DNA of 64,000 nucleotides, from the NCBI GenBank assembly GCA_965218795.1, contig OZ244653.1, positions 928,001 through 992,000 of the forward strand, in the 5' to 3' direction. This document shows positions 14,835 to 18,897 of the stretch, piece after piece (the first letter of the stretch is position 1; each line of letters opens with the position of its first letter). The notes under the pieces were generated by a model. It saw nothing but the letters and a program-made list of their open reading frames with translations. It did not search any database and was not told the DNA's origin. The stretch comes from a bacterium (GTDB lineage Bacteria > UBA8248 > JACPRG01 > G963555815). Made by a program: the position numbers and the translations under genes.

Positions 14835-15326
14835 GAACGGGCATTTCATGATCACGGCGGGTCGGATGCCCGTCTGTCTGAGTTCTCCTCAGTGTAAGCG
14901 GACGATAAAAAATGATGGAGCTCCTTTCCAGAAGCAAAGTGCCTTCGCCTTTTCGCGACGCCTGTTCGGCGCTGCAGCCGGGCTGGCCGATGGGAGTGAA
15001 GCGGGAGCATTCCGCAGGAATGCGCGAATCAGGACAAAAAAGCCCTCGTTCCGTGCTGACTGACCGGCGCTCAGCGGGCTCACCCGCACCGTGACAGGCC
15101 GGGCAAGAGCCCGGCCGTCAAAGGTTTCCAAGGGGGGTCTGAAAGGACAGTTTTTACAATGTCCTCCAGATTGAATCCCCAAAAACAAGGGATCACTGAG
15201 CCGCCCGTGTCTTGACAATCAGAGAGAGCCTTTTCATGCGATGATCTCACAGACCTACTGGGAGGGCACAACGCCCTCCTCGATATTTTTTTGAGGATTG
15301 ATTCGATCCAATCGGGAGTGTTCCCA

Positions 15327-16355
15327 ATGAAAGCCGCCATCTTTCACGAGCACGGGGGGCCTGAGAAGCTCCTTTACGAGGACTACGATCCCCCCGCGAC
15401 TGGACCGGGCGACGTCATCGTCCAGGTCAAGGCCTGCGGGATGAACCACGTCGACCTGCTCCTCCTCGACGGCCGATACCCGCCGCCGGGCGGCCTGCCG
15501 CACATCAACGGCTGCGAGGTGGTGGGGCTGATCTCCGAGGCGGGTGACGGCGTTACAAACGTCAAAGCAGGAGACCGGGTGATCGTCTTTCCCGGCTTTT
15601 CGTGCGGGAAGTGCGAGTACTGCCTGAAGGGCGAGCGCACGGTCTGCCTGAAATACGGTTACCTGGGCGCGGCGCGCCACGGCGGGTACGCGGAGCTCGT
15701 CAAGGTTCCGGCCGAGAACTGCGTCCCCCTGACCGAAAAAATATCGGACGCGGACGGCGCGGCCATCCCCCTCGCCTTCCTGACTTCCTGGCACGCCCTC
15801 TTCGCCCAGGCCGGGCTCGCGCCCGGGGAATGGGTTCTGGCCCAGGCGGGCGGCAGCGGCGTGGGCAGCTCGGCCATCCAGATCGCCAAGCTGGTCGGGG
15901 CCCGCGTGATCACTACCGTCGGGTCGGACGAGAAGGCCGAGTTCGCCCGCTCCATCGGCGCGGACCACGTCATCAACTACAAGACGCAGGATTTCGTGAA
16001 AGAGACCCGGCGGATCACAGGCAAGCGCGGCGTGGACGTCCTCATCGAGCACATCGGGGACGAAACGTTCGAGAAGAGCATCTACTGCCTGAACCGGATG
16101 GGCCGGCTGGTGAGCGTGGGTTCGCACGGCAATCACTGGGCCCGGATGGACCTGCGGCATGTCTACATGAAGAACCTTCGGATCTTCGGGACCAACCTGG
16201 GGAGCATCCTCGAGCTCAGGACGATTCTGGAATACCTGGAATCCGGTCAGCTCAAAGCCGTCGTGGACACCCGCATCCCCCTTTCAGACGCCCGGGACGC
16301 TGTCCAGTACCTGATCGAGCGCAAGAACAAAGGGAAGGTGATTCTGGTTCCGTAA
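15327..16355 (+). CDS. Zinc-binding medium-chain dehydrogenase/reductase (quinone oxidoreductase-like)
   Basis: MKAAIFHEHGGPE, structural Zn motif CGKCEYC...C, GGSGVG nucleotide-binding motif. Confidence 0.88.
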   Translation: MKAAIFHEHGGPEKLLYEDYDPPATGPGDVIVQVKACGMNHVDLLLLDGRYPPPGGLPHINGCEVVGLISEAGDGVTNVKAGDRVIVFPGFSCGKCEYCLKGERTVCLKYGYLGAARHGGYAELVKVPAENCVPLTEKISDADGAAIPLAFLTSWHALFAQAGLAPGEWVLAQAGGSGVGSSAIQIAKLVGARVITTVGSDEKAEFARSIGADHVINYKTQDFVKETRRITGKRGVDVLIEHIGDETFEKSIYCLNRMGRLVSVGSHGNHWARMDLRHVYMKNLRIFGTNLGSILELRTILEYLESGQLKAVVDTRIPLSDARDAVQYLIERKNKGKVILVP

Positions 16356-16736
16356 CCCCGACTCGACCCGGCAACTCAGATATACAACCCGTTTTCCCGC
16401 TCGGGTACTCACGCTTCAGATAGGGAAGACTATCCCATGACAATCACCTGGAGGTAGACTTTCTCGTCCCCGCCGCCGGTTGTCCCAATCCGTCGGGCCG
16501 TACCGCCGTTCGCACATCCAAGCACCCGAAGTGCTTTTGAGAAAACTCAGATGGCCTTGCTTCGCAGGAGAGAAACATCTTGCTTTACAATCTGTTATGT
16601 GACTCGCACCCTAACCGCTTCGTCTCCTTCCAAACCTCGAACCCGTTGCGCTTTCAGGACACCGCCTCAGCCCAAATGGTCCCCGATCAGCAAACGTTCC
16701 ACAAGGCGGTCGATTGTTCAAACGGCGATTATACCC

Positions 16737-16798
16737 TTGACGCACCCGGCCACTAGATGTAGGATTTCAGCCCACGAAGGCCAGATCACAAGATGTAG
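16737..16798 (+). promoter_or_regulatory. Sigma70-like promoter TTGACG-N17-TAGGAT overlapping two NrdR-box-like motifs (left inverted repeat)
   Basis: TTGACG 16737-16742, TAGGAT 16760-16765; CACTAGATGTAG at 16751 and CACAAGATGTAG at 16787. Confidence 0.5.
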
Positions 16799-16856
16799 CG
16801 ATTGACAAGCCAGCCTCCCCTGCCTGAAACTGAAGCCTCCTTTTCACATTCTTTGA

Positions 16857-16932
16857 TGGAGCCCCGGAGGGGATTCGAACCGAGACCTCGTACCTTGCAG
16901 GGGACGCGGTCTTGCCGTTTGACCACGGGGGC
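16857..16932 (-). tRNA. Degenerate tRNA-like gene, anticodon GCA (Cys), probable pseudo-tRNA
   Basis: Minus strand: GCCCCCG acceptor (6/7 pairs), T8-G9, GTC/GAC D-stem, CTGCAA loop, GGTTCGAATCC T-loop, T73 plus encoded CCA; anticodon and T stems are mispaired. Confidence 0.55.
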
Positions 16933-16936
16933 TCCG

Positions 16937-17248
16937 TCAAGTAACTTCGAAGTAAAAATTACATTTAGAAGTGATTTTCTCCATTCTCGGTTTCCCTTTG
17001 ACAGGTTCGAATTCACTTTCAATCCCGTCAATTTCGATAGAGATCCATGGTGACTTCTCAATGGCTGCGTCTAGGTCCGCCTTTTTCCATTCACGAAGCA
17101 TCTCTTTCAGCATTAGCTTGACTTCATCCTTCCCTGCAACCGATATTTTGCACGTAGTACAATACAAACGAATTATCTTACCCTCCGGTTTATCCACATT
17201 CACTTTGAAGCGGCAATGTCCACAAAATATCCGATCAATCAGGCTCAT
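16937..17248 (-). CDS. Small hypothetical protein with CxxC...CxxC zinc ribbon
   Basis: AGGAG RBS upstream of ATG; CGHC and CTTC; AT-rich codon usage unlike flanking genes. Confidence 0.7.
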   Translation of the reverse strand: MSLIDRIFCGHCRFKVNVDKPEGKIIRLYCTTCKISVAGKDEVKLMLKEMLREWKKADLDAAIEKSPWISIEIDGIESEFEPVKGKPRMEKITSKCNFYFEVT

Positions 17249-17419
17249 TTTGCGCTCCTAGGACGCACCTATCCTGTTGACATGGGTGGTGGGATTTGCT
17301 AAAAGGAGGGTGCCAACCCGTTCCTCACAGCAACCCCCCAAGGTTCCCTTGGGGTTCCAGCCCTACGAGATTCAACCTACACCCAATGACGGGAAGTGGT
17401 CAAGCGTTTGGTGGCTGAT

Positions 17420-17479
17420 CTACATCTTGTGGTCAGCCGATATGAGGGCGGGATCTACATATGGGGGCTGGTGCGTCAA
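17420..17479 (-). promoter_or_regulatory. Right inverted repeat: TTGACG -35-like box plus two NrdR-box-like motifs
   Basis: Minus strand TTGACG, CCCCATATGTAG (17455-17466) and CACAAGATGTAG (17420-17431). Confidence 0.45.
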
Positions 17480-17583
17480 GTGTATAACTCCGATTTGTTT
17501 CCCCCTCCCCGTATGCTACAACTGAGCAGTCTCGATTTACGCTTTTTATCATTGTACGAACCAGTCGTGGGGGGAGTGCGGCC

Positions 17584-18897
17584 ATGGAGCTGTCGAAGGA
17601 CGAATCACGCCTGCTGAAGTGGATCGACGACCACAAGGATGAGGCCACCCAGCTGCTCAAAGACCTGATCCGAATCCCCAGCCCGACCGGCGAGGAAGGA
17701 CCCGGCCAGGAGTTCGTCACGAAGTATCTCTCCGACATGGGGCTGGAGATCGAAACCCTCGTCGGCGACATGGACGCCCTCAAAGACCACCCCGAGTTCA
17801 TCCCCGTGGACCCGGAGATCAACGTCGGCAACTACGAAGAGCGTCCCAACGTCATCGGCACGTACAAGGGCGGGGACGGCGGAAAATCCCTGCTCCTGTT
17901 CGCCCACATCGACACCGTCCCGCCCGGCGACGGCTGGGATTACGACCCCTACGGCGCCCAGATCGACGACGGACGGATGTACGGCCGGGGCACGGCCGAT
18001 ATGAAAAGCGGCATGGCCGCCGCGTTCTTCTCCCTCAGAGCCTGCCTCGAAGCCGGACTGCGTCCCAAGGGCGACGTGGTCTGCATGAGCAACATCGAAG
18101 AAGAAATCGGCGGAAGCGGCGGCATTCTCGCCTGCATCGAGGGGGGCTACCGCGCGGACGCCTGCATCTATCCCCACCCGGGCGAGGGAAAGCCCCCGCT
18201 GGTGATGATCGCCTCATCCGGCGTGCTTTCCTTTCGCGTGAAGGTGCAGGGGCAGACCGTCCACGGCTTCCAGGCCCACGTGGGCGTCAACGCCATCGAA
18301 AAGGCCTTCCTCATCGCCGAGTCCCTGTGGGAGCTCGACCGCCGTATCGGCGTGACCTCGCGCGAGGAGTTGACCGAGGCGGCGTATTACACCAGCGGGC
18401 GTCCGGTGCGGGCGGCGAACCTCTACATGAGCGCCCTCCACGGGGGCGGATGGCTTTACCAGGTCCCCCCGTCGTGCGAGATGGACTGGGTCTACACCTT
18501 CCCCAACAACGAGACCCTGGAAGAGAACCGCGCGCGAATCGAGGAAACCGTCAAGGCCGCGGCCGCGGCCGACCCCTGGCTGCGGGAACACCCGCCCGAG
18601 TTGCAATGGCTGCCCGTGAAGTTCAGCCCGTCCCGGGACGATCCCGGGCATCCTTTCATCCAGCTGTCTCAGGAATGCGTAAGCTTCGCCAGCGGAACCG
18701 AGGCCCCGATGGTCGCGAATCCGGTGGGGAGCGACACGCGGGTCCCCGTCCTCTACGGGAAGATCCCCACGGCCAACATCGGACCTCTGGGCGAGAACGG
18801 ACACGCGCCCAATGAGTGGATGGATCTTGATTCTTACTTTGTATCCATTAAAATGTTCTCTCTTATCCTCGCACGCTGGTGTGGTATCGCAACTTGA
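17584..18897 (+). CDS. M20 family metallo-amidohydrolase (ArgE/DapE-like)
   Basis: AHIDTV, YGRGTADMKSG, EEE.GG.G and GHAPNEW motifs. Confidence 0.9.
   Translation: MELSKDESRLLKWIDDHKDEATQLLKDLIRIPSPTGEEGPGQEFVTKYLSDMGLEIETLVGDMDALKDHPEFIPVDPEINVGNYEERPNVIGTYKGGDGGKSLLLFAHIDTVPPGDGWDYDPYGAQIDDGRMYGRGTADMKSGMAAAFFSLRACLEAGLRPKGDVVCMSNIEEEIGGSGGILACIEGGYRADACIYPHPGEGKPPLVMIASSGVLSFRVKVQGQTVHGFQAHVGVNAIEKAFLIAESLWELDRRIGVTSREELTEAAYYTSGRPVRAANLYMSALHGGGWLYQVPPSCEMDWVYTFPNNETLEENRARIEETVKAAAAADPWLREHPPELQWLPVKFSPSRDDPGHPFIQLSQECVSFASGTEAPMVANPVGSDTRVPVLYGKIPTANIGPLGENGHAPNEWMDLDSYFVSIKMFSLILARWCGIAT

Follow-up and report, generated by a model that had tools for sequence, protein, structure and literature searches.

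A transposase-free cassette between two catabolic genes

We analysed a 64-kb stretch of bacterial DNA (G000:C1:928001-992000, hereafter the window; G000 denotes the genome under study) that holds a 769-bp insert at positions 16724-17492, between a gene for a zinc-dependent alcohol dehydrogenase (15291-16355) and one for an M20 peptidase (17584-18897). The evidence set out below makes it quite probable that this insert is a non-autonomous mobile insertion cassette of the IS1595 family of insertion sequences (ISs), with an orphan zinc-ribbon open reading frame (ORF) and a decayed tRNA as its cargo. The locus contains the following features (aa, amino acids):

16724..17492, no strand: the whole cassette, 769 bp, probably a non-autonomous IS1595-family mobile insertion cassette; borders from comparison with a second copy
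16724..16806, plus strand: left end, of transposase-distal type, with a terminal repeat and two 12-mers (repeat analysis, end profile)
16800..16851, plus strand: conserved subterminal block (TTGACA at 16802-16807, then GAAACTGAAGCCTCC), kept in the sister cassette c3 and in the transposase-distal end of a 4.1-kb element of the related genome G004
16857..16932, minus strand: decayed tRNA-like sequence of 76 nt with a CCA end, its extended stem spanning 16852-16941; its first base lies 4 nt past the TGA of the ORF
16937..17248, minus strand: 103-aa zinc-ribbon ORF (C9xxC12...C30xxC33), with AGGAG at 17255-17259 (minus), 6 nt before the ATG
17374..17403, minus strand: candidate promoter of the ORF (TTGACC at 17403-17398, 18 nt, TAGGTT at 17379-17374), proposed by eye
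17410..17492, minus strand: right end, of transposase-proximal type, with a terminal repeat and two 12-mers (repeat analysis, end profile)

An original prediction, made from the letters of the window, had described imperfect inverted repeats around a low-GC insert between two catabolic genes, without a target-site duplication, and all of this is present in the sequence. The 103-aa CxxC/CxxC ORF with a good ribosome-binding site and the tRNA-like gene 4 nt past its stop on the same strand were likewise found as described, and the word 'degenerate' for that tRNA proved apt, since ARAGORN and Rfam both fail to call a tRNA there. The GC content is 0.435-0.47 at 16900-17299 and 0.61-0.70 in the neighbouring genes; this low GC marks the cassette as being of foreign origin. 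The 103-aa ORF is the sole ORF of the cassette with a ribosome-binding site, and it lacks matches to the two IS1595 transposase domains, DDE_Tnp_IS1595 (PF12762) and Zn_ribbon_IS1595 (PF12760). Because the element has no transposase of its own, it is classed as a cassette and not as an IS.

A second copy, sister cassettes and a shared end structure

The borders of the cassette were set by aligning its flanks with those of a second copy in the same genome (minus strand, G000 3051294-3053402), which is 100% identical over window positions 16723-17143 and 99% over 17138-17499; the identity begins at GGCGATTATAC and stops at GTATAACTCCG. The second copy is flanked by a perfect 8-bp direct repeat, GTTTCTTC, and is split by 1334 bp encoding proteins with HTH_Tnp_1 (E=1e-11) and rve (E=4.6e-25) domains. 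Because it encodes these two proteins, the interruption is an IS3-family element, and it sits in the ORF of this copy. The window element thus combines what defines a mobile insertion cassette (MIC), namely IS ends, a passenger, no transposase and more than one copy at unrelated sites, and it has moved at least once within this genome.

In each end, a terminal inverted repeat (GGnnATTATACnCTTGACG) some 28 bp long precedes two direct 12-mers of the CACnAGATGTAG type, 35-36 bp apart. The 12-mers lie at 16751-16762 and 16787-16798 on the left, and at about 17417-17432 (17420-17431) and 17452-17467 (17455-17466) on the right. Two pairs of inverted arms join the ends: 16729-16751 with 17465-17487 (23 nt, 87% complementary) and 16784-16798 with 17420-17434 (15 nt, 93% complementary). 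The left terminus, GGCGATTAT, presumably fits the ISNwi1-group end consensus of ISfinder, 'ggnnatTAT'.

A profile was built from the outer 85 nt of seven ends. It finds 11 ends at E<1e-4 in this genome and many in the related genome, so the inverted ends go beyond chance. The 11 ends belong to the two copies of the window cassette (c1), to two sister cassettes, c3 and c5, that share the end type and carry different cargo, and to three solo ends (G000 1316146, 1566595 and 1660379). Sister cassette c3 (G000 384261-385104; L010 1762-2605) has as its cargo a tRNA gene together with a 66-aa ORF whose product, judged by eye, resembles a two-helix membrane protein; it sits 200 bp from genuine tRNA-Gly(GCC) and tRNA-Cys(GCA) genes. 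Sister cassette c5 (G000 1745473-1747310; L101) carries a complete type II restriction-modification pair, with an N6_N4_Mtase methylase (E=3e-39) and an SfiI-like nuclease (E=3.7e-48).

The same ends bound a transposase-bearing element in a related genome

G004, a genome of the same family as G000, contains a 4131-bp element (C6:352756-356886; L068 1257-5387) both ends of which are of the cassette type, with end-profile scores of 42.0 and 56.8 bits. Its genes code for a 339-aa protein with DDE_Tnp_IS1595 (E=1.2e-39) and Zn_ribbon_IS1595 (E=2.8e-9) domains and, as passengers, for a 539-aa GmrSD_N/HNH protein and two small proteins (106 and 167 aa) of no known family. The transposase-adjacent end starts with CGGAGTTATA, as does the right end of the window cassette, whose terminus CGGAGTTATAC matches it, and the far end carries the TTGACA...GAAACTGAAGC block of the window left end. 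Given these matching ends and blocks, the 103-aa ORF occupies the place and direction that the transposase gene has in the autonomous form. The terminal repeats of the cassette are, in other words, homologous to those of elements that encode DDE_Tnp_IS1595. The pair of 106-aa and 167-aa proteins also forms a 1.2-kb cassette elsewhere in G004 (L064), and it resembles, by eye, two ORFs (82 aa and 157 aa) that follow the G000 solo end at 1660379.

The same related genome holds 11 copies of a 908-bp sister cassette (L028, L029, L054-L062) with ends that are 100% identical and a 160-aa ORF that has the appearance of a membrane protein. Perfect 8-bp duplications, all A/T-rich, flank 6 of the 11 copies. 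Among the five copies without one, the flanks of L054 and L061 are exactly swapped and those of L028, L059 and L060 are chained, which is the mark of homologous recombination between copies. Such recombination gives an ordinary reason for a copy, like that of the window, to lack its duplication, and the swapped flanks point to genome rearrangements in G004 by recombination between copies. A target duplication of 8 bp is typical of the IS1595 family; here it was found at the second copy of the window cassette and at these six copies, and not at the window copy.

Across contigs from one genome per species, a 34-nt end motif was found in 32 stretches, 20 of them in the G004 record and 12 in records of other taxa (Bacteroidia, Alphaproteobacteria, Verrucomicrobia, Brocadiaceae and Desulfobacterales). 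In 3 of these 12 (L071, L085 and L096) the start of an IS1595-type transposase gene is no more than about 100 nt away from the motif, and in L075 such a gene lies 1.8 kb from it. These results bear out the original prediction of an IS1595-family cassette without a transposase, through the second copy with its 8-bp duplication, the sister cassettes and the transposase-bearing element of G004. They also supply the related ends elsewhere that it had expected from a repeat search across the genome and its relatives, in the form of the second copy, the sister cassettes and the G004 elements.

IS1595 transposases of the host genome

The genome under study has 13 matches to DDE_Tnp_IS1595, and its full-length IS1595 transposases number three. 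One match belongs to an element at G000 4625867-4628208 (L102 168-2509) with 30-nt inverted repeats (87%), which encodes a 294-aa IS1595 transposase and two passengers, one of them a 144-aa DksA/TraR-type C4 zinc-finger protein. Its ends are about 72% like those of the cassette over the outer ~36 nt (counted by eye), with a single 12-mer-like site per end and the second 12-mer lacking. Its transposase is 34% identical to that of the G004 element.

Sequence variation at the locus among strains

Contigs from two public sequencing runs, X5 and X6, provided evidence on strain variation. An X6 contig matches the window at 17492-17699 (1 other letter and 1 gap) and has 134 unlike letters before 17492, so that its breakpoint coincides with the right cassette border to within one base. 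X6 also contains a sister cassette that shares 16818-16881 with 0 differences and 17329-17488 with 14 differences and 6 gaps, the intervening 447 nt being swapped for 582 other nt. The first of these shared segments covers the 3' part of the tRNA-like sequence. The original prediction had further proposed a comparison with empty sites, which brought it no support: there was no clean one in the run contigs and none in the relatives, of which G004 and G006 have the two neighbouring genes on separate contigs.

The zinc-ribbon ORF

The 103-aa ORF is nearly an orphan. A word-index search gave 2 proteins among 2 candidates, P0001 (98 aa, 72% identical) and the broken piece of the second copy (P0002). 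An exhaustive profile search of 1.84 billion representative proteins gave 5 proteins at E<=0.001, and the real homologues are three: P0001, P0004 (102 aa) and P0005 (86 aa). P0003 (652 aa) was dropped as a repeat artefact with 11 repeated stretches. In the four-sequence alignment the four cysteines, H11, G23-K24 and R52-E53 are invariant, and the C-terminal NFYFEVT is kept between the 72%-identical members.

Against Pfam the ORF matched no family, the best hit being a zinc-ribbon at E=0.078, below the cut-off; the ORF and its three homologues matched 0 families in NCBIfam, PHROGs and PADLOC. Relatives were absent from plasmids and phages (tblastn), from viral contigs (0 among 21 pattern matches) and, of the 51 genomes scored in this phylum, from the remaining 50, and a scan of metagenome loci returned 1 locus, antisense of another gene. 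The AlphaFold model is poor (mean pLDDT 56.8). A fold comparison, suggested by the original prediction as a way to place the protein, gave no significant match: Foldseek against the PDB found nothing at E<=0.001 (best, a small zinc-finger protein at E=0.23), and in the ESM Atlas the best score was 0.89, with no common family.

The tRNA-like sequence

ARAGORN called 0 tRNAs anywhere in the window, and at 16857-16932 Rfam gave no RF00005 match even at E<=10. The cloverleaf of the window sequence is computed at -26.3 kcal/mol against -36.4 for the best fold, so that forcing it costs 10 kcal/mol; the fold as a whole has z=-2.4. The sequence is 76% identical to the host tRNA-Thr(GGU), as against 66-68% for the next seven tRNAs listed, and shares with it the anticodon stem and the variable loop. 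Relative to this tRNA, the 3' strand of the T stem is altered, leaving two pairs, and the anticodon arm has an extra U or a six-base loop. Because the T stem is broken, the anticodon arm irregular and the cloverleaf disfavoured, the window tRNA-like part is predicted to be unable to decode, and it is most likely the relic of a passenger tRNA gene.

The tRNA gene of sister cassette c3 is in better order. ARAGORN calls it tRNA-Ser(GCU), of 79 nt, and Rfam scores it at 49 bits with a cut-off of 29 bits; its best fold is the cloverleaf (z=-5.0). It is a class I tRNA with the serine anticodon GCU, a variable loop of only 5 nt and a U73 discriminator, and its acceptor end (G1-C72, C2-G71) is like that of tRNA-Gly or tRNA-Cys. 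Seryl-tRNA synthetase requires the long variable arm of its tRNA. The longer stem of the c3 tRNA is a leader-trailer pairing, and the host tRNA-Thr pairs likewise.

The c1 and c3 sequences share a clamp (TTGAC-GGA before, TCAAA after) and the letters of the acceptor end, and their bodies are alike at 51 of 79 positions (65%). Two acceptor pairs differ on both sides between c1 and c3, a signal that comes from two sequences only and whose score is reached by 111 of 500 shuffles. A covariance model built from c1 and c3 scores the window sequence at 85.9 bits, by construction. In 50 related genomes this model found no further member, the remaining hits being at the level of ordinary tRNAs (<=59 bits), and 24 loci with other cassettes yielded none either. 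Searched by BLAST in 51 genomes, the tRNA-like stretch gave just the two identical copies, and the other odd ARAGORN calls in G000 lie in unrelated sequence.

Promoter-like structure of the ends and a model for the cassette

A promoter scan reported a sigma-70-like match in the left end (TTGACG at 16737-16742, a 17-nt spacer and TAGGAT at 16760-16765). The right end has, by eye, TTGACG (17479-17474), 16 nt and TAGATC (17457-17452). The subterminal block at 16800-16851 fell below the pass mark of the scan, and the candidate ORF promoter at 17374-17403 is absent from its list. The end motif as a whole resembles a promoter: TTGAC, about 17 nt, then TAGnnn. In one of the 12 stretches from other taxa, L087 531-665, on a contig of a metagenome-assembled Desulfobacterales genome, the 34-nt motif is the promoter of an ordinary tRNA-Met gene (TTGACA, 17 nt, TAGAAC, with the tRNA 25 nt on). 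This match is a chance one, yet it shows the IS end to have the layout of a promoter.

We propose that an IS1595-type DDE transposase would mobilise the cassette, which has none of its own, in trans and would make an 8-bp target duplication. In this model the zinc-ribbon gene would replace the transposase gene of the autonomous relatives in the same orientation, and it would probably be transcribed from the transposase-proximal end. The ends may carry an inward promoter that the transposase could cover by binding the 12-mer. The tRNA-like part would at most give the ORF transcript a structured 3' end.

Weighing of the competing explanations

Several findings weigh against the cassette interpretation. 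The flanks of the window copy, GTTCAAAC on the left and ATTTGTTT on the right, hold no matching duplication, and among the 4 bounded cassettes of this genome only 1, the second c1 copy, has a perfect duplication; c3 and c5 lack one too. No transposase-bearing element of G000 was found with both 12-mers, and the nearest transposases of G000 are 34-38% identical to that of the G004 element; any cognate transposase in G000 is therefore putative. The X5 and X6 contigs diverge from the window as early as 16383, so that 16384-16723 is also variable, and their contigs offer no clean empty site. X5 contigs have, exactly at the borders, 120 extra letters on the left (16723) and 46 on the right (17492/17493), which might hold the missing target duplication or extra copies of the ends.

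On one rival reading the locus would hold no transposable element, and the insert would be a segmental duplication or a recombination patch with chance inverted repeats. The lack of a duplication at the window copy and the strain-variable 340 bp to its left fit such an event. Against it stand two copies with identical, precise borders in unrelated flanks, the 8-bp duplication at the other copy, a sister cassette in 11 copies of which six have duplications, and the fact that the same ends bound an IS1595 transposase gene; we regard a patch of this kind as extremely improbable. An integron- or integrase-type cassette with a tRNA attachment site was also considered and rejected, there being no integrase, duplications of 8 bp, and the ends of DDE-transposase elements.

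The nature of the cargo is a separate matter. The cassette might merely spread a working protein and RNA module, such as a regulator pair, a decoy for a tRNA nuclease or an mRNA 3' end cut by RNase P. In favour of this, the stop codon of the ORF falls within the conserved TTGAC...TCAA clamp, with the first tRNA-like base only 4 nt beyond it; c1 and c3 agree in every letter of the clamp and of the acceptor end, although their bodies are only 65% alike; and in two acceptor-stem pairs both partners differ between them. The X6 sister cassette, the interior of which is otherwise replaced, retains the 3' part of the tRNA-like sequence with 0 differences, and the four cysteines and the NFYFEVT terminus persist in the 72%-identical ORF members. 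Irregular tRNA genes near transposon-related and toxin-antitoxin genes are described in passages of PMC5389517. However, the c1 RNA is called by neither ARAGORN nor Rfam and its cloverleaf lies 10 kcal/mol above the best fold in energy, the covariation is weak (two sequences, with 111 of 500 shuffles as good), and c3 has a tRNA without an ORF homologue, so that the pair is not conserved. In the second copy the IS3 element interrupts the ORF, and no defence, toxin or antitoxin family matched. A working module of this kind is thus unlikely. It also seems quite unlikely that IS1595-type cassettes in this lineage spread a tRNA-based module, in which the c3 tRNA could mis-read serine codons or act as a decoy or regulator, while the window fold would persist directly behind the zinc-ribbon gene as a functional RNA element (such as a 3' end cut by RNase P, or a partner of the zinc-ribbon protein).

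Alternatively, the ORF could be a remnant or derivative of the N-terminal zinc ribbon of a transposase, the cassette being an internally deleted IS whose protein damps transposition through the ends in the manner of InsA, the zinc-finger repressor that binds the ends of IS1. The ORF does stand at the place of the transposase gene, beside the CGGAG-type end and in the same orientation, and it begins with a CxxC-17-CxxC ribbon, as IS1595 transposases begin with a zinc ribbon (PF12760 matches). But BLASTP of the ORF against the G004 transposase gave E=21, PF12760 is absent among its Pfam matches even at E<=0.1, it does not match the zinc-finger passenger of the G000 IS1595 element (probability 1.4%), and the interior GC of 0.435-0.47 is unlike that of the ends. 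We give this origin a very small chance. The interpretation as an IS1595-family cassette with zinc-ribbon and decayed-tRNA cargo accordingly retains our preference. The original prediction had joined a transposon cassette to a functional module; its structural half is borne out and its functional half finds no support, since for a toxin/antitoxin, an anti-defence decoy or a regulatory pair there is no family match, the RNA is predicted not to fold as a cloverleaf, and the other copy of the ORF is broken by IS3.

Comparison with known mobile elements and implications

The kind of element described here is already known, and the window cassette is a further example. Transporter ISs of the IS1595 family are reportedly the subject of work by Siguier, Gagnevin and Chandler, in Res Microbiol in 2009. 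MIC231 is of the IS4/IS231 family; the window cassette is of the IS1595 family and has an orphan zinc-ribbon gene and a pseudo-tRNA as its cargo. Passages of PMC3129680 define a MIC as IS ends with passenger genes and no transposase, and use the term transporter ISs for passenger-carrying IS copies, described there for the IS1595 family. Like the window cassette, MICs (MIC231 of the IS231 group of Bacillus cereus is an example) have two IS ends, a passenger and no transposase, and are thought to be moved in trans by a cognate transposase. The ends of the window cassette are related to those of passenger-carrying IS1595 elements (the G004 4.1-kb element and G000 4625867-4628208), with duplications of 8 bp; unlike transporter ISs, it has no transposase. 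MITEs, the miniature inverted-repeat transposable elements, are likewise short and non-autonomous, with IS-type inverted repeats and several copies per genome. In contrast to the geneless MITEs, the window cassette has a conserved ORF, complete with ribosome-binding site, and a sequence derived from a tRNA, and therefore suits the MIC label better.

Passages of Mukai et al. (PMC5389517) describe allo-tRNAs and tRNA genes, irregular or inactive, that have transposon-related and toxin-antitoxin genes as neighbours. These resemble the cassette tRNAs in being non-canonical or decayed tRNA genes in or beside mobile DNA. Allo-tRNAs are defined by an 8/4 or 9/3 acceptor/T-stem geometry, whereas the alignment of the c3 tRNA gives the ordinary 7/5 and a variable loop of 5 nt; with this geometry it is not an allo-tRNA. 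A tRNA gene is an unusual cargo for an IS cassette, and in the main texts of the literature searched we found no report of one in an IS1595-type cassette.

Cassettes without a transposase are rarely annotated, yet they are a route by which small genes travel within and between genomes. The cargo of those with the present end type comprises a restriction-modification pair, a GmrSD-like nuclease and small membrane proteins, along with a tRNA and the orphan zinc-ribbon gene. Defined by a terminal repeat and two 12-mers, with 8-bp duplications, an occurrence in several phyla and an identifiable transposase, this end type makes such cassettes easier to find and annotate. It explains the strain-to-strain variation between the two catabolic genes and, in G004, the flank swaps that mark rearrangements.

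Other repeats in the genome

The 340 bp to the left of the cassette (16384-16723) recur in part at G000 2773649-2773786 (76%) and 2579900-2579977 (82%); Rfam has no match within this segment, which may be another small repeat. An over-loose fuzzy search for ends gave 1901 matches, mostly due to chance. Inverted pairs of GGnAATGATACGCTTGA termini, 170-420 bp apart, occur at G000 324100/324270, 4427683/4428006 and 4884324/4884742 and have the look of miniature elements that carry no gene and whose ends are of a related type. Ends of the GGnAATTATACGCTTGAC type, at G000 3432750, 4001228 and 4233231, represent yet another subtype.

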